In this document: positions 1 through 15,671 of the stretch, one piece after another
How the letters are laid out: each line of letters begins with the position of its first letter
Position numbering within the stretch: the first letter of the stretch is position 1
NCBI GenBank assembly: GCA_046581755.1
Contig: JAYGFR010000295.1
Span: 1 to 17,702 of the forward strand
Origin: Nitrospinota bacterium
Lineage (GTDB): Bacteria; UBA8248
Length of the DNA stretch: 17,702 bases
Reading direction: 5' to 3'
Program-made: the position numbers and the translations under genes
The notes under the pieces: generated by a model
Told to the model about the DNA's origin: nothing
The model's input: the letters and a program-made list of their open reading frames with translations, nothing else
Database searches by the model: none

Positions 1-905
1 ACTCGCCAGCTGTCCCGCCTGGGCCGGATCGAAGGCTACGTTCAAAAGGCTCGTGCCGTAATGAAAATCGCCGAAATCCTCGAGCGTAATAAAACTCGTC
101 CCCGCGTAATTCCGGTCGTCCCCCAAAATTCGATCCAGTTCGAGGGGATGCCCGATTGATTCGTGGATTTGAAAAATCATTTGATCCGGCGCGATGAGCA
201 AATCCATTTTTTCTTCCGGACAATTCGGCGCATCCAGAAGCTCCCGGGCCTCTTGCGGGATGATGGGGGCCATCCGCCTCATATCCTCGGGCGACAGCGC
301 CCCCCACCCCCCCTGCCTCGCGTGGCTCCTCGCGCCATAGGTCCTTTTTTGCGCCTCCGGGCCGGCACTCGCCACAGCGCCCATATCGGGAATGATCGTG
401 CGGAACAACTGCCGCACGCGCGCACCATTGGATGCGCAAAAAACGATGTCCTCTTCCGAGAAGGAAAAGGACGCGTACCACTCCGAGATTTTACCGCCGC
501 CTCCCAGGGGACCGTTCAACTCCTTCAAAAAATCGATTTTCTCTTTCAGAGGAACGCCGTCCCATGGAGAATCGCCGGGGCTGACATACTCTCCCTGATG
601 GCAAGGGAGATCAAGGCCGCCACCCTGGGAACCATCCGGCCAGAATTTTTTCGAGCCCCCGCGAGGGCTTCATCCGCCGAGCGCCTTAAACCTCTCTCCG
701 AAAGGTCGCTCGAGGCCGCGTACCCCATTCCGCCCCAATCGCAAACCGTGACCATGGCGCCGATATCCATCGAAACGGCGGCGGGCTGAAGGATCCCGTT
801 GCGAACGGTAAGATTTTCTCCGCGTTGGCGCACAATCCGGACGGACCAAAAATCCGCCTCCGGCGCTATTTTCCGGAATCCCTCGGCAATGGACATCAAC
901 GTCAT
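1..905 (-). pseudogene. tldD: TldD/PmbA-family metalloprotease (TldD type); one frameshift; 3' end lies beyond the window
   Basis: ORF 905-546 gives a TldD-like N-terminus (DFWSVRIV...DIGAMVTV...GMGYAASSDLS). A -1 shift somewhere in ~680-550 (e.g. GGG at 627-629) opens a frame running to base 1 that reads ...DQMIFQIHESIGHPLELDRILGDDRNYAGTSF..., with the HExxGH metal motif at 165-148. GGGAG lies 7 nt before the ATG. The frameshift may be a sequencing error. Confidence 0.88.
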
Positions 906-1097: not shown

Positions 1098-2384
1098 GTG
1101 AATGACCTCGTCGCCGCCCTCGAGGATCGCATCGCCACCCTAGAGCGCGAAATCGGCAACCTTCGCCTTGTCCAGGAGTGCACCGCCACCCTCATTTCTT
1201 CGCTCGATTTCGACGAAACGCTCAATATCATCTTGAGGACCGCGAGAAACACGGTGGGAACCGAAAGGGGCTCCATTCTTCTCCTCGACATCGAACAGAC
1301 CCACCTGACCATCGCCTATGCCGTCGGACTCAGTGAAGAGACGATCAATTATACGCGCATTCCGATAGGCGAAGGATTCACCGGCCAGGTTGCCCAGTCC
1401 GGAAATCCCATTCTCGTGGAGGATATCGACGAAGACCCACGGTTCGAGGAGCGCCGATCGAGGTCCGACCGCTCCCGCTCGTTTGCCTGCCTTCCCCTAA
1501 TCTACCATGGCCGAACCCTGGGCGTCATGAACCTCAGCCATCCGATGGGCGATCGCCCTTTCAACGAAAATTCCCTGCCTTTACTCGGCGCCCTCGCCAA
1601 TCAGGCGGCGGTCGCAATTGCCCACTCGGAGTTGCACCGATCGTTGCTCGAAAAAGAGCGGCTGGAGCAACAGGTCGAAACCGCCCGCTCCATTCAGGAG
1701 AGCTTCATTTCTCCCCGCATTCGGGTCCAACACGAAGATTATATTTTTATGGGGTGCAATGTGGCGGCCAAAGCCGTGGGCGGCGATTTTTACGACGTCA
1801 TGGAACTCGATAACGGGAAGGCCGCATTGGTCCTGGGGGACGTTTCCGGAAAAGGGATCCCAGCCGCGCTCTACATGGCAAGGCTCTTCAGCGATGTTCA
1901 CCACCGAATCGCGATGAATTCGAATCCCGAAGCAGTGCTCCGTTCCCTGAATCATTCGCTTCACAAGCGCCAGCACCGGGGAATGTTCGTTACGATGGCC
2001 TGCGGGCTTATCATTCCAGAAAAAAATATCGCCCGCGTTTGCATCGCGGGCCATCCCCCGCCGATCGCCAGGAAAAAGGACGAATCGGTCTCTTTGCTTC
2101 CGCCAGCCCAATTTCCGCCCATTGGCCTGCTCGAAGAAGTCCCCTTCACTTCATACGAAGTCGGCCTTTGCCCCGGAGACTTGATCCTCCTGTACACGGA
2201 CGGCGTGAATGAAGCGACCAACTCCTCGGGCGAGGAATTCGGAACGAAACGGATCGAGCATCTGCTCCGCGATTGCGGGAAGGAAGAAGCTCCCGTCGAA
2301 CGATTATACGAGGGCCTGCTCGAATTCACCCATGGCCATCCCATTCGAGACGACATCACCCTACGGACGGCGGCAAGAATTTAA
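1098..2384 (+). CDS. GAF-domain PP2C/SpoIIE-family Ser phosphatase (RsbU-like), 428 aa
   Basis: N-terminal coiled coil, GAF domain (GEGFTGQVAQSG...SFACLPL...LGVMNL) and PP2C motifs GGDFYD, GDVSGKG, LYTDGVNEA, RDDIT. Confidence 0.92.
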   Translation: MNDLVAALEDRIATLEREIGNLRLVQECTATLISSLDFDETLNIILRTARNTVGTERGSILLLDIEQTHLTIAYAVGLSEETINYTRIPIGEGFTGQVAQSGNPILVEDIDEDPRFEERRSRSDRSRSFACLPLIYHGRTLGVMNLSHPMGDRPFNENSLPLLGALANQAAVAIAHSELHRSLLEKERLEQQVETARSIQESFISPRIRVQHEDYIFMGCNVAAKAVGGDFYDVMELDNGKAALVLGDVSGKGIPAALYMARLFSDVHHRIAMNSNPEAVLRSLNHSLHKRQHRGMFVTMACGLIIPEKNIARVCIAGHPPPIARKKDESVSLLPPAQFPPIGLLEEVPFTSYEVGLCPGDLILLYTDGVNEATNSSGEEFGTKRIEHLLRDCGKEEAPVERLYEGLLEFTHGHPIRDDITLRTAARI

Positions 2385-2392
2385 AATTCCGT

Positions 2393-2725
2393 TTATTCCG
2401 CCTTCGGATATTGGGCCTTAATGGATTCGCGCTTTACCTGAATCGCGTCCGCCGCCTCCGGCCGCCCTTCAACGGCCCTCTCCCAGAGAGCGACGATGAG
2501 AATTTCCGTTGTAATGCCCTCCGTAAGATAGGCATCCTTCCGGCTTCGCTCGTATTCCGTAGCCTCTCGCTCCGCCTCGATGGCCGCCCAATCCCCCTCG
2601 ATCTCCTCCAGCGGCGGAAGCGCCTGGGCCTCGTCCTCCCACGTCGCTTCCAACTCCTCGTAGCTGCCGGCGCGCCTCCATGCCGCTCCCAGCCTAATCC
2701 GGTCCAAAACCAGCGCGATATCCAT
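2393..2725 (-). CDS. Small phage tail-fibre-associated protein (putative assembly chaperone, XkdW-like N-terminus)
   Basis: AAGGAG 7 nt before ATG 2725 (alternative start 2731). The pattern W.D...P..EEI...W...Y.R.R..AY...LW...IK..YPK resembles small proteins that follow phage fibre genes, and it lies directly downstream of the fibre gene. Confidence 0.6.
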   Translation of the reverse strand: MDIALVLDRIRLGAAWRRAGSYEELEATWEDEAQALPPLEEIEGDWAAIEAEREATEYERSRKDAYLTEGITTEILIVALWERAVEGRPEAADAIQVKRESIKAQYPKAE

Positions 2726-2746
2726 TCCCATTCTCCTTTAGGGCCT

Positions 2747-3316
2747 CTAAGCCACCTTCCAGAACTCGGCCACCGTATAAACCTCGACTTCCGAGACATT
2801 CGTTGCATTTCCGAATCCGGTAGTCGCTGCGGTCATGGCGCATCTATGCTGCACCTCCAGGGCTTGCGCAGCCGCTATCGTGAAGCGCCCGGATACGATC
2901 GATCTTGTAGTCACTCCGTCGGCGTTGTCCGTGGTTTCCGACGTTCCGACCAGGACATTCGTCGCGCCGGTCGTGTTGTAGAGTTTGAGTTTGTGCTGCG
3001 ACACCGCATGAGCCGGGGCCGTGATCTTGCAAATGTAGGTCCCTGCGGCGAGCGTGATCTGGTTCGAGGAAAGCGAGGCGTGCCCGCCCCCGTCCGAATC
3101 CTCCTTATTCAGATCGCGCGTCCGCCAGGCGCCTTTGGTGAAGGTTCCCCCGGCGGTGTTGGCCGCCTTCTCGTCGATGATGCGGATGTAGTGATCCGAA
3201 AATGTGCCGTCGTTCTCAAGTGCGAACGCGGTCGCGAGGCGGTTCAAGGTGTTGGCTTTTTGCGGGTGGCCCGCGCCCACCATTTCTTCTGTGGACTGAA
3301 TTCTCTGATCGGCCAT
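2747..3316 (-). CDS. Short phage tail fibre / receptor-binding-like protein, 189 aa
   Basis: Strong SD (AGGGAGGT) before ATG 3316. N-terminal anchor MADQRIQSTEEMVG..HP.K..TLNRL, then a beta-rich domain with GGTFTKGAWRTRDLN...SNQITLAAGTY typical of phage fibre C-termini. The track ORF's extension to 3514 is a shadow over the upstream gene. Confidence 0.65.
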   Translation of the reverse strand: MADQRIQSTEEMVGAGHPQKANTLNRLATAFALENDGTFSDHYIRIIDEKAANTAGGTFTKGAWRTRDLNKEDSDGGGHASLSSNQITLAAGTYICKITAPAHAVSQHKLKLYNTTGATNVLVGTSETTDNADGVTTRSIVSGRFTIAAAQALEVQHRCAMTAATTGFGNATNVSEVEVYTVAEFWKVA

Positions 3317-3327
3317 GAATACCTCCC

Positions 3328-5259
3328 TTATGCGTAGACTTCTATATCTCTCCGGCCTCCGGCCAAGAGCCGCCCGCCGGCGAACGCTGCATCCTTCGGC
3401 CCCTGGGCGGCGTTGGACACCCCCGCCCATGCCGCGTTTCCGCTCAGGACCCCATGGTTCAGGTTCAAGGATGCGTCGCGCGCCAGGGTCCCGCCTCCCT
3501 CGTTGAGCGGCCAATATCCAGCCATGCCCGTTTCATCCGTGAAAACTCCATTGAAATGCTCCAGGACTTCGGGAGGGGAGAGGATGCGGCTGTAAAGCCG
3601 GACGCCGTCGATAAACCCGTCGAAAGTTAAGGCATCCCCCGATTGATTGCCTATAATTAAATCGCCACCGGAGTCAGAATCCCTTGTCCCCGTGGGGACG
3701 CTCTCTGTTGTAGTGGCCATTACGGAGCCATCTAAATAAATAACGGCCTCGTTGCCGGTAGCGTCTGCGTTATAAGTAACAACAATATGATGCCATGCGT
3801 TTAAAGAAACGCTGGCCGAGTCGGTGTTTGTGGCGTAATCGTTCCCGTCCCAGGTATGGACGAATTGGAGTTTCACGAACCCGCCCGGTTCGGAGTGGGT
3901 GGCGAGCTGAGAAACCCCGTTTCCCGACCCCTTTCCGATGATCCGCCCGAAACTCACCTCTCCGTCGCTTCTGACGTAGGCCCAGACCTCGAACGATCCC
4001 CCCCGTCGAAAATATTCTGGATCGCCGATTCATCGGGGATAGTTACGCTCCCGCTCGCCCCGTCGAATTCCGCCGCATCGGTTGCCGCGCGCCCCAGCCC
4101 CGCGCAGCTTCCATTCGCCAGGCAAGCCTTCGTCAGGAAATACCCGGTATCCCGAAGCTGAAGCTCCAGCGTTTGCTCTCTCAGATCGGGCGCGGCCGAA
4201 ATCACCTGGCCGATCTGATTCCGGAGAGGTCCAGATTCGCCGAGCGAAGCCAGGGAACCGTGAAGACCACGTAATCGTCCGGCTCCACCTCGAGCGCCCG
4301 GAACGTCGCGCCCCGTATTTGAACCGTCCGCACCGGCTCCTCGAAGCGCTCCACGATCAGCGCTTGAATCGTCCGGGCCACCGCCTCGCTTCTCACCCAT
4401 TTTAATTCGAACCGGCCGTTCTTCGGGGGCGTCCTCACGCCGTAGAGCGTCTGGGAGGCCCCGCTGCCCTCAAGGACCCCTTCCTCGTGAAGCAAAAATT
4501 TTCCAGCGACGTTATCCCGCGCATACAAAACGGGCACCTGATTGATCACCCCATCCCGGCTCACCTCCGACTCCACCTGCTCCGCCTCGAACTCGGGGAG
4601 CACCTTCGCCGGATGAATCTCGCCCCCCTCGGAATTCGCGATGGAAAATTTCAGCCGCCCGAAAGCCTCCACCTCGAAGCGGCCGAGAAAATTCCCGAGC
4701 AAATCGGTCAGCAGGTTCGCCGGCACGTGGTCGTCCAAAATGACCCCCGCCGCGGCATGCCCTGGGTATCCGCTGATGCGGCGGCCCGGCTGAGCGCCTG
4801 GCGGTCGATGTCCTGGCCGGCAAAGCCCCAAAAGTTCAGGGCGAGGTCCTCGATTATTTTAGCCGGATTTTCGATCAGGGCGCCGGTCTCGTCCTTCTTC
4901 CCGCGGCATACGGCCGACACGCGGCCCGCCGGCGCCACCGAAAACGCCGCCGTTGCGATCACCCCCTTGCCCTGAAAATCGTTCGCCGTATCGAGGGTGT
5001 AGTCCCCCCCAGCGATCAGGCCGTCGTTGTCGAAGAGCGATACGCCGCCGTGGATGGCGTGCCCGGCGATGCAATAGGTTCCCGCGCCCGCCGTATCGAT
5101 TTTCGGGAGCGCGTACACGCCCGCCTCCGTCCGCGCCGGAACGCTCATGTCCCCGTACACGATGGGCAGCGCGTCCCCCCCGCTCTCGGGCGCCGAATAC
5201 CGCGAGGCCCGGGCGATCAGATAGCTGTCGGCCATCCGATCCTTCGTCAAATCAGCCAT
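3328..5259 (-). pseudogene. Large phage tail-tip / host-specificity-like protein with C-terminal LamG (ConA-like) domain; about 644 aa after repairing three frameshifts
   Basis: Track ORFs 5271-4708, 4831-4202, 4400-3954 and 3957-3328 join into one frame by adding one base at ~4761 (ADTQG|HAAAGVI), ~4229 (NLD|PLRNQIG) and 3998-4004 (FDGG|GSFEVW). It contains LPIVYGD and LIENPAKII (tail-tip-like) and LamG motifs AWHHIVVTY, IYLDG, FDGFIDGVRLYSRIL, GYWPLNEG. Confidence 0.65.
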
Positions 5260-5275
5260 TCGCTCCCCCAAGGCC

Positions 5276-5706
5276 CTACACCCCCTCGTATTCGAGCACC
5301 GCCACGTCGCGCCGCTTCACCACCCGGCGCACCGAAAACGAGGCCAGCGAAATCACGTCCCCGATGTCCCCGCCCGTGAAACCCACCGGACATCCAGCTT
5401 CCCGCCCACGACCGGCTCCTGGGCCAGGATCCGCGACATCCGCGGATGCCCCTCCGCGTCCTGCCCGTTCGAGAGCGTCAGCGTCAGCCCCGAGAGCTCC
5501 TTTTTCAAATAAACGTCCAGCGGCGAGCGCCCCGCCGACTTGCCGGCCGAAAACTGCCCGCCGTCCACCACCCAGGCGTGCATCCCCAGCAGCACCTCCG
5601 AGCCCTCGCCCGCCTGCAGGCGCAACTGGATCGGACTGCCCGCCGCCCCCGGAGAAGGGGGCCCGGCGCTACGCCCCGCCCGCCACCTCGTCAACAGTTT
5701 CCTCAT
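5276..5706 (-). pseudogene. Putative phage tail protein, about 143 aa, one frameshift
   Basis: AAGGAG 6 nt before ATG 5706. Adding one G at ~5386 gives ...LTLTLSN...GGKLDVRVGFTGGDIGDVISLASFSVRRV...LEYEGV* ending at TAG 5278-5276, just before the SD/ATG of the tail-tip gene. Function inferred from context. Confidence 0.5.
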
Positions 5707-5953
5707 GTCGATCTCCTTTTGGCTCGAATCAACTTGGCCGCTCCCGCACGCGCCTCATGGCGGCTGCGCGATGGGAGGGAATGTAAGGCAGGCGGGGCAA
5801 ATCCCGGCGACAGGAAATGCGAGGTGGTTCGCGGCGGGCGAAAAAAAAGAAAAAACCCCTATGTCAATGAAAAGTACTCACTTGCAGAGAGAGCGCTCAT
5901 GCGAGAGGATGCTTTTGTGGGAATTGGGCCGTCGAAACGGGAGACTTGAGGCC

Positions 5954-7198
5954 ATGGAATCCGTCATCGGAGTGTTGTGGAAGGTTCCCTGGAACCACCT
6001 GATCGATATCTGCGTCATGTGGTTTCTGGGCTACCAGGTCTACATGCGCTTCCGGGGAACCCAGGCGATGCGCCTTCTGGTCCGCGTGCTCATAGTCTGG
6101 CTGGCCTACCTGACGGCCCAGACTGCCGGGCTGATGCTGACCTCGTTTCTCCTGTGGGCGCTCTGGATCGCCGTGCTGATCTTTTTCCTCATCACCTTCC
6201 AGGGCGAGATTCAGCGAATCCTGATGCGGATCAACCCGATGCGCCCGGTGGGGGTTCTCCTCCGCCTGGCCCGGCACGTGCACCTTCCGGACGAGACGCT
6301 CACGGCGGTCTCCGCCGCCGCCTTCGCGCTCGCCTCGAAGAGGATCGGGGCGATCATCATCTGGGAGCGGCTCGACCCGATCGAGCCGCTTTTGAGAAGC
6401 CCGGGAGAGATCATCGACGCCGAGGCGCGGCCGGCCCTTCTGGAGACGCTGTTCATCACCGGCACCCCCTACCATGACGGTGCGCTCTATATTCAGGAGG
6501 ATAAAATCTACCGGGCGGGATGCGTGCTTCCCCTGTCCGAGAACACCGAGCTCGGCGCGCATTACGGGACGCGTCACCGCGCCGCGGTCGGGCTCACCGA
6601 GCGCTCGGACGCCCTGGCGCTGGTCGTCTCCGAGGAGCGGGGCGAGGTTTCCGCCGTCGAGCACGGCGAGATCACCCCTCTCGAATCGGTCGAGGCGCTG
6701 ACCGCATGGCTCACCTCGCGCCTCCGGGGGCGGGAGGATGAATCCCAGTCGGCCGCCCACCGGCTCCGTGAAATCGTCGAGCACAATTGGCGCATCAAGC
6801 TGGCCGCCCTGGCCGCCGTCGCCGTCCTCTGGGCGGTGGCGATCAAGCAAAAGGAAAGCCCGCAAAACATATTCGCCACGCTGGGCCCGGGGATCGAACG
6901 CGCCTACACCGTTCCGGTCGAATACTACAACCTGCCGCCCGGCCTATCGCTCGGCCCGGACCGCATGACCCGGGTGAGAATCCGCCTGAAGGCCGAGGCC
7001 GATCTTTTGAACTTCATCGACTCTGGAAGGTTCCGGATCAAGATCAACCTCAGCGACGCGCGGGATGGACCGCTCGATCACGTCATCTCCACCCGGGACA
7101 TCGATCTTCCCGCGCGAATTCGCCTGGTCGGGGCCGAGCCTTCCGAGATCCGCCTCCGCCTCGGCAAAAAAACCAACACATCGGCCAGCCGGCCCTGA
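5954..7198 (+). CDS. cdaA: Diadenylate cyclase CdaA (3 TM + DisA_N/DAC) fused to a TM helix and YbbR/CdaR-like domain, 414 aa
   Basis: Three N-terminal hydrophobic helices, FQGEIQRIL linker, catalytic HDGA and GTRHRAA motifs, VVSEERGEVS; then NWRIKLAALAAVAVLW and YbbR-like VPVEYYNLP...INLSD...LP..IRLV..EP. ATG 5954 chosen because homology starts there; the track ORF from 5540 is overextended. Confidence 0.92.
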   Translation: MESVIGVLWKVPWNHLIDICVMWFLGYQVYMRFRGTQAMRLLVRVLIVWLAYLTAQTAGLMLTSFLLWALWIAVLIFFLITFQGEIQRILMRINPMRPVGVLLRLARHVHLPDETLTAVSAAAFALASKRIGAIIIWERLDPIEPLLRSPGEIIDAEARPALLETLFITGTPYHDGALYIQEDKIYRAGCVLPLSENTELGAHYGTRHRAAVGLTERSDALALVVSEERGEVSAVEHGEITPLESVEALTAWLTSRLRGREDESQSAAHRLREIVEHNWRIKLAALAAVAVLWAVAIKQKESPQNIFATLGPGIERAYTVPVEYYNLPPGLSLGPDRMTRVRIRLKAEADLLNFIDSGRFRIKINLSDARDGPLDHVISTRDIDLPARIRLVGAEPSEIRLRLGKKTNTSASRP

Positions 7199-7214
7199 GC
7201 GCCGGCGCGGTTTT

Positions 7215-7263
7215 CTTTTCGGACTCTCGGCTTTTTGGACTCTCAATCTTTTCGGACTCTCGG
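7215..7263. repeat. Three tandem 16/17-bp repeats, core CTTTTYGGACTCTC
   Basis: CTTTTCGGACTCTCGG (7215-7230), CTTTTTGGACTCTCAAT (7231-7247), CTTTTCGGACTCTCGG (7248-7263). Confidence 0.9.
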
Positions 7264-7449
7264 AGGCTCGTTCCGCGCGGACCTTCGATTTTGCCGGTAA
7301 CCGGCCGCCAGGCTCCCCCGTTCAAAATAACCGAAAAGAGAAAAGAACAAATCGCACGGGGTGCGATGCGCCGCTCAATTTTTTGTGTCCGAAACGGGTG
7401 AAATATCAAATGCTTCGAGAACCTTTTCCGGGCCGCGCCCAAAAACCCG

Positions 7450-7478
7450 TTGCCGGATTCGCCCCCGGAACCCATATT
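7450..7478 (+). promoter_or_regulatory. Candidate sigma70 promoter TTGCCG-N17-CATATT
   Basis: -35 at 7450-7455 and -10 at 7473-7478, each 4/6 consensus, exact 17-nt spacer. Predicted TSS about 7485. Confidence 0.4.
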
Positions 7479-7484
7479 GGATTC

Positions 7485-7948
7485 AAGGCAGAGAGGATGT
7501 GAAAGAGTAGCGGCCCGGCCCAACCGGCCCCACTGGAAAATAGGGGAACCCGGGAGAATCTGGAGCGCCCCGGAGACGCTCCGGAACCTTTACTCCATTC
7601 GGGAAGGAGCCGATGAGAGTGATTAACTGAGCAAGCTCTCCGGCAGGCGGGCGCCACCCTCCCCGAGAGCAATGACGCGGAAGTGGCGCGAAATTCTCCG
7701 GATGGCGAGAGTCGTCCCCTCTTCCTGTCGGGAGGAGCCGATGATCGGAAACAAGATATCGAAGTTCCCCGGAGCGATAAGCGCCGATCTTTCGGGGAGC
7801 AGACACCGGCCATTCGGCGCATTTGCTGATTAAAAAAACGGGCGGCCATCCGCCCGGCACGGCCCACCCCGAAAATTTCCCACGCGGGAACGGGCGGCCG
7901 AAAGAAAAAGAGAGCATAAAGGCGGGGTGTGATGCCCCGTCTTTTTTT
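7485..7948 (+). ncRNA. Candidate structured RNA / leader of unknown family
   Basis: Bounded by the candidate promoter and a terminator, with several stems and a duplicated motif GGAGCCGATGA. No convincing long ORF and no full match to a family I recognise. Confidence 0.3.
7918..7948 (+). terminator. Intrinsic terminator
   Basis: AAAGGCGGGGTG-TGA-TGCCCCGTCTTT stem (with G.U pairs) running into T7. Confidence 0.7.
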
Positions 7949-8066
7949 GCGCCCGTTTCTGGGTCCGGCTTTTTTTATGCGCGGCGGGCGGCTATCATCC
8001 GCGGACAGCCGTTCGCCATGCAATCAGATTTCAGGCCATACGATCAGTGTTCAGGAGAACCCGCCG

Positions 8067-9065
8067 ATGAAGCAGGGCCTCGTCCTCACGCCCCCCGATC
8101 CCGCCACCCTCGCCAGGTGGTCGAGCCTCGCCGAGGAGACAGGCTTCGACGCCATCTGGGTGACGGATTCCCAGTCCCTCTACCGGGAGGTGTTCGCGTC
8201 GGTGGGCGTTTGTCTTTCGAGCACACGGCAAATCCCGTGCGGCCCCTGCGTGATCAACCCCATCACGCGGCACCCGGCGGTGGCCGCGAGCGCCATCGCC
8301 ACCCTGAGCGAAATGCACGGGGAGCGAGCCGTCCTGGGCCTGGGCAGCGGGGATAGCGCCGTCCTGAACCTCGGCATGAAGCCCGTCCGGGTCGCCCGGG
8401 TGCGCGCCTATCTGATCGCGCTCCGCTCTCTCCTCGAAGAGGGCCGCGCCGAGTACGAGGGCCGGGCCTGCATCCTGAACTGGTTCAAGCGGCGCGTGCC
8501 CCTCTACCTGGCCGCCGAGGGGCCCCGGATGCTCCGCCTCGCGGGCGAGTTGGCCGACGGCGTCATCGTCGGCTCGGGCCTCGTCCCCGAGATGGTGCGA
8601 GACTCAAAGGCGCTGATCGAAGAGGGCGCGCGGGCGGCGGGCCGCCGCATCGAGGATATCGATCTGTGGTGGATGGCCAAGGTAAACGTGCACGAGGACG
8701 GGGAGCGGGCGCGCCGGGAAATCCGCGCCGGCCTGGCCGGCAGCGCCCACCATGCCTTCAACTTCACGCTGGAGGGAAAGCACGTCCCGCCCGGGATGGC
8801 CGGATCCATCCGCGAACTCCGCCGCCGCTACGTCTTCAGCGAACACGCCATGGCCGAAAAGGACGCCAACGCCGCCCTCGTGGACGAACTCGGGCTGCGC
8901 GGCTTCCTGCTCGAGCGGTTCGCCATCGCCGGAACGCCAGAGGAATGCCGCGCGCGGCTGGGCGAACTCGAAGGGATGGGCATCGAAAACATCCGCCTCA
9001 CCGCCCACGTCCCCAACCGGCCCGCCTTCATGCGCCTCTGGAGCGAGGAGGTCATGGGCCGCTAG
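8067..9065 (+). CDS. LLM-class (luciferase-like) flavin/F420-dependent oxidoreductase, Mer-like, 332 aa
   Basis: AGGAG before ATG 8067. Motifs AEETGFDAIWVTD, NPITRHPAVAASAIATL, LGLGSGD, PLYLAAEGPRMLRLAGELADG, IAGTPEEC. Confidence 0.9.
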   Translation: MKQGLVLTPPDPATLARWSSLAEETGFDAIWVTDSQSLYREVFASVGVCLSSTRQIPCGPCVINPITRHPAVAASAIATLSEMHGERAVLGLGSGDSAVLNLGMKPVRVARVRAYLIALRSLLEEGRAEYEGRACILNWFKRRVPLYLAAEGPRMLRLAGELADGVIVGSGLVPEMVRDSKALIEEGARAAGRRIEDIDLWWMAKVNVHEDGERARREIRAGLAGSAHHAFNFTLEGKHVPPGMAGSIRELRRRYVFSEHAMAEKDANAALVDELGLRGFLLERFAIAGTPEECRARLGELEGMGIENIRLTAHVPNRPAFMRLWSEEVMGR

Positions 9066-9080
9066 GCCCCCCGCACTGGC

Positions 9081-9461
9081 TTAGGCCCGCCGCACCTGGG
9101 CGAACTCGACCCGGACCCCCGCCGGATCGCGCACATAAAACCGCTCCCACTCCTCGATGGGCTGGAGGTCGGGAACGATCTCCACCCCCCCGGCACGGAG
9201 CGCCGCCTCGGCCCGCGCCAGGTCGTCCACCTCAAAGCAAACGTGCTGGCCGCGGGCCACATTTTCCGGGGTTTCCTCGAGCGAAAGGTGAAGCTCGATC
9301 CCCGCCAGATAGAAGTAGGCCCCGCCGTTTTTGCGGAGGGGCACGGGCTTGGGCGCCTCCTTCATGCCGAGAATCCCGCCGTAAAACCGCCGGCAGGCCG
9401 CCTCATCCTCCGGGCGGACGCCGATCTGCACATGGTGGATTCCGGTGATTCCGAGCTCCAT
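9081..9461 (-). CDS. VOC / glyoxalase-family protein, 126 aa
   Basis: AAGGAG 6 nt before ATG 9461. Motifs IHHVQI, RFYGGILG, ELHLS, HVCFEVDDL, RFYVRDPAGVRVEF. Confidence 0.9.
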   Translation of the reverse strand: MELGITGIHHVQIGVRPEDEAACRRFYGGILGMKEAPKPVPLRKNGGAYFYLAGIELHLSLEETPENVARGQHVCFEVDDLARAEAALRAGGVEIVPDLQPIEEWERFYVRDPAGVRVEFAQVRRA

Positions 9462-9597
9462 GGGGCTCTCCTTGAAGTTCCGCGACTTCATCCGCCCCGC
9501 ACTTTACCAAATTCCGGCGCTGTCCTTTTTCCCGGCGATCCCTTAAATATAATGGGACCGCCTGAATTTTCCTTCTTGAGATTTCCCTGAGGAGCCC

Positions 9598-10478
9598 ATG
9601 TCCCTCCGCCCGGTCCGCATCACCGCGCTTATCCTTTTCCTCCTTGCCGCGCCCGCCATCGCCGCTCCCCCTATTGCAACCCCGGGCCGCGCCGGGGCGC
9701 GGATGGCCCTCGTCCCGGCGGGATCTTTTCGCATGGGCACCTCGAAGGCGGACATCCGCCTCCTCCTGCGCTCCTGCCCGGAGTGCAAAAACGGCCGGTT
9801 CGGGGACGAGACACCCTACCGCCTCATCCAGCTCGACGCCTTCTATATCGACCGCTATCCCGTCACCGTCCGCCTCTTCGCCCGCTTTATAAAGGAGACC
9901 CGCCGCCGCACCCTGGCCGAGGAGGAGGGCTGGGGATGGGTGCTCGCGGGCGGAAAATGGCGCAAGGAGGGCGGCGCGAGCTGGCGGCTGCCCACGGGCG
10001 GGGAGGCCGCCGCCGTCCCGGACCATCCCGTCGTCCAGGTGGCCTGGCCCGACGCCGATGCCTATTGCGCCTGGGCCGGAAAGCGCCTGCCCACCGAGGC
10101 CCAGTGGGAAAAGGCCGCGCGCGGAACCGGCGGGCGCATCTTCCCCTGGGGAAACGCCTAGACGCCGGGCCGGCTCATCCATCGAGGAAACAGCGGGGGC
10201 GGCACCCACCCCGTCCGCCGCCCCTACTCCGTCCACGACAACCCCTACGGGGTCTCCGACCTTTCCGGCCATGTCTGGGAGTGGATCGCCGACTGGTACG
10301 CAGAGGACACCTACCGCAGCGCCCCGACCTGAACCCCCAGGGCCCCTACTCCGGCACCCGGCGCGTCAAGCGCGGGGGCGCCTGGAACATCGCCACCCCC
10401 CTCGCCTTCCGCGACTACCACGAACCCGAGATGCGCAACAACATCTCAGGCTTCCGGTGTGCCGCCGAAACGAGATAA
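9598..10478 (+). pseudogene. Secreted FGE-sulfatase (SUMF1-like) domain protein, interrupted by an in-frame TAG and a frameshift
   Basis: Signal peptide; GSFRMG, HPVVQVAWPDADAYCAWAGKRLPTEAQWEKAARG, FPWGN. Reading through TAG 10159-10161 gives NPYGVSDLSGHVWEWIADWY. Adding one C at 10322-10325 gives NPQGP...RVKRGGAW...GFRCA. Confidence 0.88.
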
Positions 10479-10537
10479 CCGAATTGAGAGGTAAAAAGAG
10501 AACGCGCCGGGCGGATTCACCGCCGCCCTGGCTCCCC

Positions 10538-11923
10538 CTACCCGTCCCCGCCGAGCTGCCCGGCAAGATGGCCGAAGAGGGCCTTCGCGGCCTCGTCGGT
10601 GGTCCAGCCGCGCTGAGTGGCGAGATCGAGGGCTTCGCTCACGCGGAGAAGCGAGGCGCTCATCTTTTCGGTGTCCTTGACGGATATTTCGGGGAGAAGG
10701 GGCCGCACGCCCGCGCGGAAGGCGGCCTCGCCGATGCGTCCGGCCCGGCGGGCTTCTTCGAGCTGTTTATCAATCAGCGCCTGGAGGATGTGGCGCACGG
10801 TGCGCTGGCGGCGGGTCATCTTTTTGAGGGTGGGCTGATCCATGGATTCGGCCGAGGCGCGGTTCACGTCGTCGCCCTGGGCGAACCAGTGGGAGGGGAT
10901 GCCCATCCCGCCGAGGACGAGCCCGCGCATCATCCGCGCGATGCCCTGGGAGCCCGACTCCCCGCTCTTGCGTCGGGCGATACGGCGCGCCACTCTTCTT
11001 TCTCGTTGTGGACGCGCACGCTTGAGGGCAGGGGAGCGGCCCCGTTTTCCTCGATCCACTGGGCGATGCGCTCCGGGCCCGCGCCCTTGAGCGTGACGTC
11101 GTAGATGAAACTGTTCTGCAGCCGCGAGCGCTCGGCGGTGTCGAAGATGAATCGCTCGTAGATGTCGATCCAGTCGATGGCGGCGAGAAGATCGGAGGTC
11201 CCCCGCGTGGCGTCGCTCGCCTTGTTGATCTGGAACAGGAACGCCTCGCCGTCCCCGAAGCGCTCGCGCTCGCGGATTCCGGCCGCGCCCAGGTACTCCC
11301 GCGGATCGCCCCCGAGGACGGTGCGCACACGGCGCTCTTTTTTCCCGCCCCCCAGGCCACGGTCGCCGCTCCGGATGATGACCCCGATGGGCAGGGGGCA
11401 GTTGTCCGGATCGGGCACAACCTCTTCGATCAGGCGCGGGCTCACGTAGCCGAGGCGCACCCTCCCCTCGTATTCGGAAACCGCGACGGGCAGCAAGAGT
11501 TCGCCGAAGATGCCCAGCTCCGAGACCAGCCGCTTGAAGCGCAGGGCGAGCTGGTTCACCGGGTCGCCCCAGAAGGCGCGGATGCACGCCAGCGCGTCCG
11601 GGTCCTCGGACTGCCAGGTGACGCCCTCGCCCACGACATGATCCGTCACGACCTCGATCAGGCGCTTGCCCATCAGGTTGGTGAGCCAAAGCTCGTAGGC
11701 AATGCGCTGCATCCGGGAGTGGCTGAATTTCGGGAGGCCCCCGCTTCCCTCGCCCAGGCTCCGCCAAAGGCGCTCGTCGGGATCGATCAGGGCGCCCGCG
11801 CCGCAAGGCGGCGCGCCGCCTCCGCACCCTTCGGGCCGCGCTCTTCGCCGGAGCCGCCCGGTCTCCCCTCCGCTCCGAAACTTTCTCCATACCGCCGTTT
11901 CGATCTCCTCCCGCCTTCGTCAT
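10538..11923 (-). pseudogene. Putative phage portal protein, about 460 aa, at least two frameshifts
   Basis: Directly downstream of the terminase (ATGA overlap at 11923-11920; alternative ATG 11890). Core IDPDERLWR...RMQRIAYELW...GEG...GE.L...RGTSDL...; adding one G at 10960-10963 joins GIPSHWF..GDDVNRASAESM..PT.K....RQ, a portal-like C-terminal pattern. The N-terminal shift (~11780-11890) is unresolved. Confidence 0.72.
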
Positions 11924-13465
11924 CCTCTTCCTCCTCCGCGCCCTATGCCGCGACTCGCGCGGGGGCGCATGAATGGGTCCCGGACCGGGGGGAGAACGGT
12001 CGTGCAGGCGGGCGCCGTCAGGACGCCCTCGCTCTCGGCCAGGGCCTCGGCGAGCCTGGCGTAGGCGCAGGCAAAACCGAAGTGGTTCTCTCCCCTCTCA
12101 AAAATGTCGATCTCCTCGCCGCCGGCCCGCGTGCGGCGCACCTTCCGGAGGTTCATCAGATGGGCCTCCACCTCCGACAGCAGGGCCTCTTCGGCCTCAT
12201 CGCGCGGCGCGGGCCAGCGCACCGGGCTGCCAGGCGGTCGGCCGGAGGGGCCTCGAAGTAGACCCACCGGGCGGGGCCGCCCTCCTCCGGGCGCTCTCGC
12301 ACCGCGACCGAGCAGACCTCGCCGGTGTCGATGCCGCAAAACCGGAGGGCTCCCTTTTCATCGCTCACGAGGGGATGGGCTCCATCGAATAACCCCCGGC
12401 GTCGCGCAGGAGGGCCAAAAGTGCCAGGTCGATGGGCTGGCTCTCTCCCGCGTACGGGAGGGCCAGGACCGTGCAGCGGAACTTCGCCCGCTCACTGGGC
12501 CGCCGGGCGGCGCGCCATTTGGCGCCGATGCGACCGATGTGGATGGCCCCGACAGCGAGTTGGGGGATGCGCCAGCTTCGGTGGCCCTCGAGGGCGGCTT
12601 CCCGCCGGGGGCTCCAGCGCCCCGCCGAGCGGGCCAGGCGCGCGCCGCAGCGCGGGCAGGCCAGGTACGGTTCCCCCTCCCCGGAGAACACGTCCGGCCA
12701 GTTCTCCTCGAGCGCCCATTCGCCGCCGCAGGCGATGCAGGGCACGAGCCAGACGCTGCAGTCGCCGTCCTCGTACATGGCCTGGATCCCCCCGCCCGGC
12801 GTCCGGCCCATGGCGAGGTTGAAGGTGAGCGCCACCTTCGAGGCGTCCAGCCTGTCGTTCGACCAGGCCAGGTTTTCGGGCGGCAGATCGTCCACCTCAT
12901 CGCGGATGAGCAGGTCCAGGGGAAGGGAGATGGCGTTGCCGATGTCGCGGAGGCCGAGGATGTAGAGAAACCGCGAGCCGTCTCCGCCGGGGAACTCCTT
13001 GAGCCCCTTCGAGGATGCGCCCTTGTAGCGCCCGTCGCGCATGGCGTCCGAGAGGCGGGGATTCCAAATGGCCGAGCGGATGCGGGTGTCGCCGAAGCGG
13101 TTGGCGAATTCCTGATCAGGGAGAAAATACCCCACGTTGAGCAGGTGGACATGGACGACGTACAGGACGAGGCCGACGGCCACGGTCGTCATCCCGATCT
13201 GGGTTCCCTTGAGCACGCTCACCGTCCGCCCGGGAAGGCCGAGGCGGAGAATCTCCCCCAGGTGGTCCACGGCTTGGCGAAGCGCCTCCCTGCCCTCGAA
13301 GGTGAATGGGCCCCGATCCGTCTTTATCTCCTCCTCCAGGAACTTGCGGAACGAGGGCATGGGGCGCGAAGGCCCCCTCCGCCCGCGCGCGATGCGCTCC
13401 CCCACAGGGCTTTCGCCGCCCTCCGCCTCTATCCGGCCGCGCCATCCCGGAACATTTAGAACCAT
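11920..13465 (-). pseudogene. Phage terminase large subunit, lambda GpA-like, about 515 aa, two frameshifts, short nuclease domain
   Basis: GGAGGGG before ATG 13465. GpA-type Walker A KGTQIGMTT, YFLP, Walker B LIRDEVD, CxxC...CxxC. Adding a base at 12371-12374 gives FCGIDTG (nuclease Asp); adding one at ~12222 gives AHLMNLRK...ENHFGFACAYARLA. Confidence 0.82.
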
Positions 13466-13666: not shown

Positions 13667-14098
<432 letters not shown>

Positions 14099-14156
14099 GC
14101 CCGCCGAACGAAACCACCGCCTCCCTGAGCGCCGGCACCCTTGAGGAGGGGCAGAC

Positions 14157-15461
14157 GTGTCGAACAAACTTCGAAAAACCGCTGGGACCGCGCTGGCCTT
14201 TACGGCCTTGATCCTCATTCCCTCGACCGCCATGGCATCCGGAGGGAAAATCGACGGAGGGGACACGGCCTAGCTTCTGACCTCCACCGCCCTGGTCCTG
14301 TTCATGACAATTCCGGGCCTCGCCCTGTTCTACGGCGGGCTCGTGCGGACCAAGAACGTTCTCTCGGTCCTGATGCAGTGCTTTTCGATCACCTGCCTCG
14401 TCTCGATCCTCTGGCTCGTGGGCGCTTACAGCCTCGCCTTCTCGGACGGCAACGCCTTCGTCGGCGGGCTCGGCAAGATGTTCTTCAAGGGGGTAACCTT
14501 AAAATCCATACACCCGGTCGCCGGCACCATTCCGGAAACTGTCTTCGCGATGTTCCAGCTCACCTTCGCCATCATCACGCCCGCCCTTATCGTGGGCGCC
14601 TACGCCGAGCGCATGAAATTTTCGGCGATGTTCCTCTTCTCGGGCGCCTGGCTCATCCTCGTCTACGCCCCCGTCGCCCACTGGGTCTGGGGCGGCGGTT
14701 GGCTCGGAAATATGGGCGCGCTCGACTTCGCCGGCGGCACCGTCGTCCACATCAACTCGGGCGTCAGCGCCCTCGTCGTCGCCATCCTCCTCGGCAAGCG
14801 GCACGGATTTCCCGACCAGCCGCCCTCCCCGCATAACCTCACCATGAGCGTCACCGGCGCGTCCATGCTCTGGGTCGGGTGGTTCTGCTTCAACGCCGGA
14901 AGCGCCGTTGCCGCCGACAGCGCCGCGGGCATGGCCATGCTCGTCACGCAGATGTCCGCCGCCGCCGCCGCGCTCACATGGATGTTCATCGAGTGGAGCA
15001 AGTTCGGAAAGCCCAGCGCCCTCGGACTCGTCACGGGCGCCGTGGCCGGCCTCGTCGGAATCACCCCGGCATCGGGATTCGTGGGCCCGATCGGCGGCCT
15101 CGTCATCGGCATCGCCACCGGCGCCATCTGCTTTACCGCCGTGGGCATCATCAAGCAAACGCTCCGGATCGACGACTCGCTCGACGTCTTCCCGGTCCAC
15201 GGCGTGGGCGGCATGGTGGGCGCCCTCCTGGCGGGAGTCTTCGCCTCGGCGGGCCTGGGCGGCGTCGGCCTCAAGATGAGCATGGGCTCCCAGCTCGGCG
15301 TCCAGCTCATCAGCATCGTCGCCACCACGGTGTACGCCGGCGCCCTCTCGTTCCTCATCCTCAAGGTGGTGGACGCCATCGTCGGCCTGCGCGCCAGCGC
15401 CGACGACGAGGAGGTCGGCCTCGACACCAGCCAGCACAACGAGACCGGCTACTCCATTTAA
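14157..15461 (+). pseudogene. amtB: Ammonium transporter AmtB, 434 codons, in-frame TAG at codon 39
   Basis: GAGGAGG before GTG 14157; signal peptide MSNKLRKTAGTALAFTALILIPSTAMA; GDTA*LLTSTALVLFMTIPGLALFYGG where W is conserved (TAG 14271-14273); DFAGGTVVH and DDSLDVFPVHG twin His. The stop may be a sequencing error. Confidence 0.93.
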
Positions 15462-15515: not shown

Positions 15516-15671
15516 GCGCCGGCGAATCTCCTGTTTCCATCCATCGATCGGCGCGGACCGCCCTCCCCCGTTGGCGCAACGGGCCCGCCCGCCGTGCAAT
15601 GAAACCCTCATTCTCTCTGGGAAGATCGTCACCGGCCCGCGCGGCATCATGCGCGAGGCGAGGAGAGCGCC

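Follow-up and report, generated by a model that had tools for sequence, protein, structure and literature searches.

What is a set of phage packaging and tail genes, kept in canonical order and split by host genes, doing in the chromosome of a marine bacterium: is it a gene transfer agent (GTA) at work, or the remains of a prophage? We asked this of a 17,702-bp contig in the draft genome of a Nitrospinota bacterium (the window, which is the whole of contig C132 of draft G000), where genes for a terminase, a portal, a tail tip and a tail fibre run along the minus strand around ordinary host genes. The answer that we favour, with a probability of about 0.8, is that a phage-derived head-tail gene set, inherited vertically across the family, survives in the window as a decayed copy, that intact copies in relatives are likely GTA-like, and that this copy is not competent to make particles.

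The gene set in related genomes

Genomes and genera of the family carry our own codes here (G001, g1 and so on). The intact set comprises ~16 genes in ~16 kb. In G004 and G010 it runs in canonical order from the terminase ATPase (terA), terminase nuclease (terN) and portal, across host genes, to a protease-scaffold-capsid fusion, connector genes, tube, chaperone, tape measure, tail-tip genes and fibre; the complete structural set that would be expected of a GTA is present in G004, G010, G015 and G024 and was not found in the genome of the window. The capsid fusion belongs with PF25209 (Phage_capsid_4; 146.8 bits for the G010 protein, against a cut-off of 27), and it scores 175 and 145 bits with the NCBIfam ‘exception’ models NF045541 and NF045540, below their cut-offs of 525 and 475. 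The tail genes drew no family from PADLOC or NCBIfam.

Orthologues of terA, 59-73% identical, were found in 18 of the 24 other family genomes, the tail-tip gene in 15 and the capsid fusion in 19. The portal is present in 32 of 42 family genomes, at one place in each (21/23 in genus g8, 4/4 in g9, 0/4 in the small-genome genus g4), and G000, G051 and G009 hold pieces of it only; in some genomes one element gene, broken or split, is represented by two or three pieces. Contiguous related clusters, at 24-40% identity, occur in other orders of the class.

The chromosomal place of the element is the same in three genera. The capsid gene (minus strand) is followed by cdaA and a luciferase-like monooxygenase gene (LLM; both plus), then by portal, terN and terA (minus) and by amtB, with or without glnK (plus), in G001, G011, G015, G023 and G024, and the same order spans two contigs in G004; G012 has the portal-terN-terA and amtB part on one contig. 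In the seven relatives mapped (G001, G004, G011, G012, G015, G023 and G024) amtB adjoins terA, accompanied by glnK in G001 and G004, and beyond the fibre end a GAF-SpoIIE gene and TldD follow in G004 and G010 as they do in the window. Synteny with glnK-amtB and cdaA, which a reading of the window made without database searches (the sequence-only reading) had named as a test of domestication, therefore holds in relatives. Between portal and capsid, genera g1 and g8 have the host genes cdaA and LLM, and G010 has an FGE-like gene. Each genome has two DAC-domain genes, of which this cdaA is one; in G010 it lies elsewhere. LLM is a tandem pair in g8.

In genus g8 the set is divided between two loci, the tail-tip genes and tape measure lying away from the head locus (by 1.8 Mb in G015, 0.5 Mb in G024 and 1.2 Mb in G011). 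The g8 tail locus encodes a 359-amino-acid (aa) phrog_8610 protein, the tail protein tail0, a 403-aa TipJ-like protein, the fibre and a 231-aa protein. In G015 a 976-aa open reading frame (ORF) with no Pfam or PHROGs match (L009, 687-3614, minus strand) stands after the tail-chaperone position, where a tape measure is normal; the recognisable g8 tape measure is at the other locus, not beside this ORF.

None of the 18 ORFs flanking the G015 loci is an integrase, repressor, replication or lysis gene; the flanks are ordinary host genes, including OsmC, a dehydrogenase, a ParA-like gene, DUF520, HepT, a cyclase, YceD and CinA. What would mark a prophage was not found, in that there is no integrase or transposase, repressor, replication gene or lysis module among the 23 window and 18 G015 ORFs, and the structural genes are not contiguous.

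Selection and inheritance

Purifying selection, which the sequence-only reading had expected of a domesticated element, was found for 13 of 13 element genes in g8: median ratios of nonsynonymous to synonymous change (dN/dS) were 0.17-0.36, at dS of 0.40-0.76 (Nei-Gojobori, 6 genomes), and eight g8 host genes gave 0.08-0.35 at dS of 0.36-1.07. Identity to the G015 proteins is 80-83% within g8 and 73-77% in g1 for the portal, and 67-70% and 48-51%, respectively, for cdaA; element proteins are conserved as much as, or more than, their host neighbours. The fibre is 36-43% identical in g9, and the g8 query found no match in g1.

The gene tree agrees with the genus codes, as vertical inheritance would have it. 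Maximum likelihood trees from 10 genomes, one of terA and portal and the other of amtB, cdaA and LLM, share all three starred clades, which are the genera g1 and g8 with G012 (g9) apart, and show no supported conflict. In a search of 5.8 billion proteins the portal found a block at 57-90% identity, which includes proteins of metagenome-assembled genomes (MAGs) labelled ‘Nitrospinaceae bacterium’, and then a drop to 42% or less. At the family level the set thus combines vertical inheritance and purifying selection with a lack of self-mobilising genes, as a GTA should.

A family-wide element might equally have been domesticated for some other use: as a PBSX-like killer particle, for defence, or for the delivery of a cargo other than host DNA. 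The sequence is silent on what the capsids carry, and a fibre that varies between genera would suit the targeting of other cells. Set against this, DNA packaging apparently still matters, since both terminase parts and the portal are under selection within g8 (dN/dS 0.17-0.24), and 0 of 12 element proteins matched a family of the PADLOC-DB 2.0 defence models. We regard such other uses as unlikely, and worth keeping in view.

An ordinary and fairly recent prophage, decayed and rearranged and never domesticated, would explain phage-type genes in a broken copy, and the closest cultured relative is indeed a phage, Mae-JY22 (discussed below). A recent arrival is difficult to reconcile with a single copy at the same place in three genera and a tree that follows the genus codes, with orthologues that co-diverge with their hosts at dN/dS well below 1 and dS like that of host genes, or with a portal more conserved than the neighbouring cdaA; nor was a close relative found in phage records or, by a single portal query, among the viral contigs of IMG/VR. 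We consider this origin improbable, and prefer that of a long-inherited, domesticated set.

The two-cistron terminase

In the window and in every one of the 11 relatives examined, terA ends in TGA and terN is a separate cistron. In g1 and g8 terN starts one base before the terA stop (ATGA or GTGA); in g9 it starts 246-326 nt beyond that stop. The GpA_ATPase gathering score (PF05876, 25.6) is exceeded both in the window (55.3 bits) and in G023 (65.7 bits), bearing out the earlier assignment of the terminase to the GpA type, unlike that of RcGTA. The window terA aligns with profile positions 21-337 of the 576 in phrog_675, and terN matches the second half of that profile, positions 358-549. A literature search at the level of titles and abstracts found no naturally split large terminase.

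The upstream promoter word

In g8 the terA, capsid and tail-tip operons, and in G015 that of the tape measure as well, begin behind a direct repeat, GCATTTGC-CC-GCATTTGC, placed ~27 nt upstream of a TATATT- or GAGAAT-like box (G015 L009/L010 and L029/L030, and other g8 loci). Genus g1 has a single-copy version of the word, CGCATTTCCTG, which G001 carries upstream of both its capsid gene and terA, and G004 upstream of its capsid gene. In the window the remnant, on the minus strand, consists of CGCATTTCCTG at 5811-5821, CTTACATTCC at 5774-5787 and AAAGGAG before the ATG at 5706.

With at most one mismatch allowed, each of four of the five g8 genomes has the repeat word at 31-46 places, and G011 has it at 4; a reversed control gave 0. 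It also precedes IalB, HbpS-like, MaoC, LCM and SDR genes, and lies within a repeated cassette of ~75 nt. The idea that the element has a regulon of its own was rejected, as the word also stands before these unrelated host genes; the repeat looks like a candidate site of a global regulator that binds 10-bp-spaced repeats.

The copy in the window

The source draft consists of 400 contigs (4.22 Mb, 60% guanine plus cytosine (GC), 96.5% complete). Its window was mapped by a Pfam scan of 23 ORFs, by PHROGs on 11 of those 23 and by three-frame translations, and the element genes are as follows.

2393-2731, minus strand: 112-aa ORF behind the fibre gene; phrog_9114 (unknown function), E 9e-4
2747-3316, minus strand: tail fibre, 189 aa, open frame; phrog_24210, 1.8e-25
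3331-5259, minus strand: tail-tip gene, a TipJ-like N-terminal part plus LamG, in four frame segments; PF13385, 1e-20
5279-5706, minus strand: capsid/tail0 deletion product, with ORF 5353-5706 inside it and a further frameshift near 5385
5707-5953, minus strand: promoter region kept from the capsid operon
10541-11953, minus strand: portal in three frame segments; phrog_10963, split over two ORFs
11929-12366, minus strand: terN, terminase nuclease ORF, whose GTG start overlaps the terA stop
12365-13465 (or 13600), minus strand: terA, GpA-type terminase ATPase; PF05876 at 55.3 bits, phrog_675 at 3e-46

Much of the sequence-only reading survives this mapping. Pfam and PHROGs support its minus-strand order of large terminase (terL), portal, host genes, tail protein, tail-tip/LamG and fibre; the terL block is divergent from glnK and the tail block from cdaA; and the strong Shine-Dalgarno (SD) sequences that it described are present, being of AAGGAG type before the ATGs at 5706, 3316 and 13465. 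We likewise found no match to an integrase, terS, capsid, tube, tape-measure or lysis gene (23 ORFs with Pfam, 11 also with PHROGs), and terL and portal are as GC-rich as host genes (0.68-0.72, and 0.65-0.70 for cdaA, LLM and FGE). The ‘chaperone’ that it placed at 2393-2731 has the phrog_9114 match listed above as its sole basis, with no match in Pfam, NCBIfam or PADLOC; a role as fibre chaperone would be a guess from position.

Lesions were defined by tblastn against the orthologues of the same-genus genomes G004 (intact) and G001. The tail-tip/LamG gene, one 643-aa ORF in G004, lies in the window as four segments, 5259-4759 (frame -3), 4762-4232 (-2), 4238-3999 (-1) and 4011-3331 (-3), with three frameshifts near 4762, 4232 and 4005. 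Its protein falls near TipJ/Phage-tail_3 clusters in the ESM Atlas (0.95-0.97), and AlphaFold2, given an alignment of 6 sequences, returned an unusable model of the 403-aa tail-tip protein (mean predicted local distance difference test, pLDDT, 38.6; predicted template-modelling score, pTM, 0.29). The portal shifts frame near 11795 and 10969, its segments being 11953-11792 (frame -2), 11799-10960 (-3) and 11089-10541 (-2) when aligned to the G004 and G001 portals. The window terN matches residues 20-68 (frame -1) and 146-246 (frame -3) of G001 terN only, so ~77 codons (residues 69-145) are missing, and a frame change near 12220-12234 comes in addition to this internal deletion. By contrast with these broken genes, terA is one open frame to the TGA at 12365-12367, with a likely start at ATG 13465 behind GGAGG.

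The largest lesion is at the start of the former capsid operon. ORF 5353-5706 is a chimera, in which ~30 residues from the N-terminus of the capsid fusion are followed by tail0 from about residue 66, at ‘AGEGSEV’. DNA homology to G004 ends at 5617 (G004:C95 16428) and homology to the start of the G001 capsid gene begins at 5672; the stretch between the deletion points measures ~9.8 kb in G004. There it carries the gene for the protease-scaffold-capsid fusion (754 aa, matching PF25209 and phrog_29592/4523), genes for 146-aa and 251-aa proteins, an HK97-gp10-like gene, a gene for a ~180-aa protein, a tail tube gene (PF18906) and a 562-aa tape measure (phrog_1535). One ~9.8-kb deletion between these two breakpoints removed the capsid, connector, tube and tape-measure genes from this genome.

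The sequence-only reading had suggested that other parts of the particle might be elsewhere in the genome, and none was found; their former place was between cdaA and the tail genes, where G004 still has them, and they were deleted from it. When 20 element proteins of G004, G010 and G015 were compared by tblastn with the whole 4.22-Mb draft, tail0 was the sole match. The capsid fusion gave 0 matches in the draft, as against its presence in 19 of the 24 other family genomes.

Could the system still work here, with its capsid, tube and tape-measure genes at other loci? The g8 relatives do have their set divided between two widely separated loci; in the window the frames of terA, of the fibre gene and of the 112-aa ORF are open; and the capsid-operon promoter word (5774-5821) and the SD before 5706 remain. 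Yet the capsid fusion, tube, tape measure, gp10-like and 398-aa proteins are all without a match in the draft, the deletion junction is inside the window itself, terN is without its 77 codons, and at least two of the tail-tip frameshifts are common to independent contigs (see below). A working dispersed system in this genome is therefore, to our minds, very improbable, and we return to the reading of a broken copy of an otherwise maintained set.

Between G004 and the window dN/dS is low for the portal (0.22), tail-tip gene (0.12) and terA (0.17), and it follows that the lineage of the window was constrained for the greater part of its divergence and that inactivation is recent. The element also appears to be undergoing loss in the same-genus G001, which has a TAG stop in the portal and a truncated capsid gene, and in G002 and G003. 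The G010 copy seems to be decaying independently, its terA being split and interrupted by TGA. In G010 ~10 kb, including a 1119-aa ORF, lies between portal and terA (C1 ~3,130,700-3,141,000).

Independent metagenome contigs

The stretch of the window was found in marine, seawater and vent metagenomes of 11 studies, and Logan contigs from four runs of four studies (X1, X2, X4 and X5) were aligned to it. The junctions near 5706-5954 and 10478-10538, which the sequence-only reading had marked for checking by reads, are spanned by these independent contigs: that between tail0 and cdaA is bridged by X1 (5133-7939) and X5 (5133-8470), and that between FGE and portal by X4 (10013-10915).

Most lesions are shared. 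Those near 4762 and 4005 are common to X5 rec21, which has no gap there, and those near 11795 and 12220 to X1 rec3, X2 rec10 and X4 rec16, again with no gap; the TldD frameshift is common to X2 rec8, and X1 rec2 (8513-10406) covers the FGE lesions without gaps. Three of the window's frameshifts are undone in other runs, by an extra T after 4229 (X1, X5), an extra C after 5385 (X1, X4, X5) and an extra G after 10969 (X1, X5; the second portal shift), and are therefore either strain-specific or consensus errors. The other runs in turn carry lesions of their own: a 253-nt tail-tip deletion at 4880-5132 in X1, X4 and X5, a loss of one base at 5175, the removal of 44 nt (13375-13418) from the 5′ part of terA in X1 and X2, and an 80-nt deletion at 294-373 in TldD in X2, all of them absent from the window. 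Populations of the same organism thus carry partly different and partly independent lesions. That contigs of four runs bridge the junctions, share most lesions and add others argues that the decay is real and polymorphic and that the contig is no chimera.

The proposal that all the frameshifts are assembly errors was rejected, most of them being common to other runs' contigs, and the broader one, of a chimeric contig or an indel-ridden consensus that mimics a split and broken prophage, is scarcely credible for a gene order found also in G004 and G001 and bridged in four runs of four studies, even though the draft is of metagenome type in 400 contigs and three frameshifts are absent from other runs.

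Neighbouring genes

The host genes and the remaining segment of the window are listed here.

1-905, minus strand: TldD-like gene (Pfam), with a frameshift at 603-627; the G004 copy is intact
1098-2384, plus strand: GAF-SpoIIE phosphatase (Pfam)
5954-7198, plus strand: cdaA-type diadenylate cyclase with a YbbR domain; PF02457 at 5e-34, PF07949
7199-7930: gap of 730 nt between cdaA and LLM
8046-9065, plus strand: LLM, host gene; PF00296 at 4e-50
9081-9491, minus strand: VOC/glyoxalase-family host gene; PF00903 at 7e-14
9598-10478, plus strand: FGE-sulfatase-family host gene; PF03781, profile positions 4-135 of 255 only
13760-15461, plus strand: glnK and amtB, divergent from terA; PF00543 and PF00909
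past amtB, plus strand: SDR gene, then an enolase-superfamily gene

Two lesions break FGE, a stop codon in frame at 10159-10161 and a frameshift near 10330-10347; its G004 orthologue is a single frame. The genome is rich in selenoproteins, and the stop at 10159 might be a selenocysteine codon. The 5′ end of the SDR gene may be mis-assembled or frameshifted, because its Pfam profile match starts only at position 42-51; in this region other runs lack single bases at 15619 and 16195 and have GCG inserted after 15737. At glnK (13760-14098) GC content dips sharply to 54%, compared with 66-72% in the neighbours on either side.

The segment between cdaA and LLM had been described as structured, a description that did not hold up: it has no inverted repeat, and no Rfam family reached its gathering score there or in the whole window, which also has no tRNA genes. 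At E<=1 the single Rfam match in 7150-8000 was ar9, at 24 bits against a cut-off of 45. The gap has a triple direct repeat of a 17-nt unit at 7214-7263, is partly conserved in G001, and in other runs carries a 10-nt insertion after 7201 and, in X4, a 149-nt deletion at 7847-7995.

Discussion

We propose that the family inherits, at a fixed chromosomal place, a phage-derived head-tail gene set, of which intact copies would assemble siphovirus-like particles. A two-piece terminase, whose small subunit was not found, could then fill these particles with host DNA. In the genome of the window this ability would have been lost through the deletion from about codon 30 of the capsid gene to about codon 66 of tail0, the removal of 77 codons from terN and the frameshifts in portal and tail-tip genes, and loss is probably under way in the window's genus. 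On each of the genomic criteria that can be tested for a GTA, the family's set would seem to behave as one, outside the RcGTA family.

Several considerations weigh against this reading. GTA function is here a prediction from gene content and evolution. The host genes used for the trees are linked to the element, so that the independence of the tree comparison rests on the genus codes. Selection is not universal, since the portal had no match in two genomes of g8, in one of g7 or in genera g3 and g4, and several g1 genomes hold portal fragments only. The three frameshifts absent elsewhere may be assembly errors, in which case the window overstates the damage, and without them most of the portal would be open; in a draft of 400 contigs that is 96.5% complete, a capsid gene could also lie on an unassembled piece. 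Finally, the repeat word, standing as it does before unrelated host genes, is a host promoter class and not a private regulon.

Measured against these results, the domesticated and dispersed GTA-like system of the sequence-only reading stands at the level of the family, where the set is single-copy, syntenic and selected and lies at two loci in g8, and fails for this genome, which holds a relic. What that reading had named as counting against it was in part observed, as genes are independently degraded and no head or tail-tube genes were found in the genome. Its simpler alternative, a rearranged prophage relic, was right in that this is a relic; the thing that decayed is a long-domesticated element and not a recent prophage.

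A fuller version of our reading, which we offer tentatively and at somewhat under even odds, is that a GTA was independently domesticated in this marine family from a Mu-like siphovirus; it would have a split terminase, cdaA and LLM within its head module, two loci and a host-wide promoter word in one genus, and the window would record its loss from one genus. Experimentally known GTAs come from very few lineages, and each independent origin tests whether bacteria repeatedly tame phages for the exchange of DNA. The hallmarks of such taming, seen across 32 of 42 genomes, are a fixed place, co-divergence with the host, purifying selection (13 genes), a lack of mobility genes and the two-locus split. 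The polymorphic and partly independent lesions across ocean populations show how the element is lost once selection lapses. If particles of a strain with an intact set were to carry host DNA, they would represent a new GTA family in abundant marine bacteria and a natural system for study of a packaging motor with its nuclease on a separate chain.

Comparison with known systems

In a literature search of titles and abstracts we found nothing relevant on a GTA or prophage in Nitrospin*, and a single terA query against genome contigs returned one irrelevant 41% fragment. A link through sulfate reducers to the Dd1 agent of Desulfovibrio was dropped, dsrA (TIGR02064) being under its cut-off in the draft and five relatives.

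Among 50,697 phage records the closest is Microcystis phage Mae-JY22 (PP438414.1), of siphovirus type with a Mu-like Gam and DUF3486. It shares the portal (39% identity across 90% of the query), the capsid fusion (32% across 86%) and the order of capsid, tube, tape measure and tail genes; it differs in being a complete phage of 41 kb, with genes for lysis, Gam and a methylase among others, and its terminase gene gave no match to the window terA. GpA-family terminases of the lambda gpA type resemble the one described here in an ATPase domain above the Pfam cut-off and in a nuclease part that matches phrog_675; in that family ATPase and nuclease belong on one polypeptide, whereas here they are two cistrons, in the 11 relatives and in the window. 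A large terminase made as two translationally coupled cistrons appears unusual for a GTA, as do housekeeping-type host genes between portal and capsid, a point at which no literature search was aimed.

Our account of GTAs and of RcGTA draws in part on the abstracts of PMC5721377, PMC9632790 and PMC11150451. The GTAs of Alphaproteobacteria, RcGTA (of Rhodobacter capsulatus) and CcGTA, share with the set described here a chromosomal head-tail set of ~15-16 kb without integrase, replication or lysogeny genes, its vertical inheritance under purifying selection, a distribution that is partly over several loci, and host-type promoters. There is no family-level homology with RcGTA: of 16 proteins scanned, the sole match was NF058675 (RcGTA_tape), at 22.4 bits against a cut-off of 220. 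The host is also different, being here a marine lineage whose MAG proteins are labelled Nitrospinaceae, with an element known from its genes; and this set differs further in its GpA-type two-cistron terminase, a protease-scaffold-capsid fusion and host genes inside its head module.

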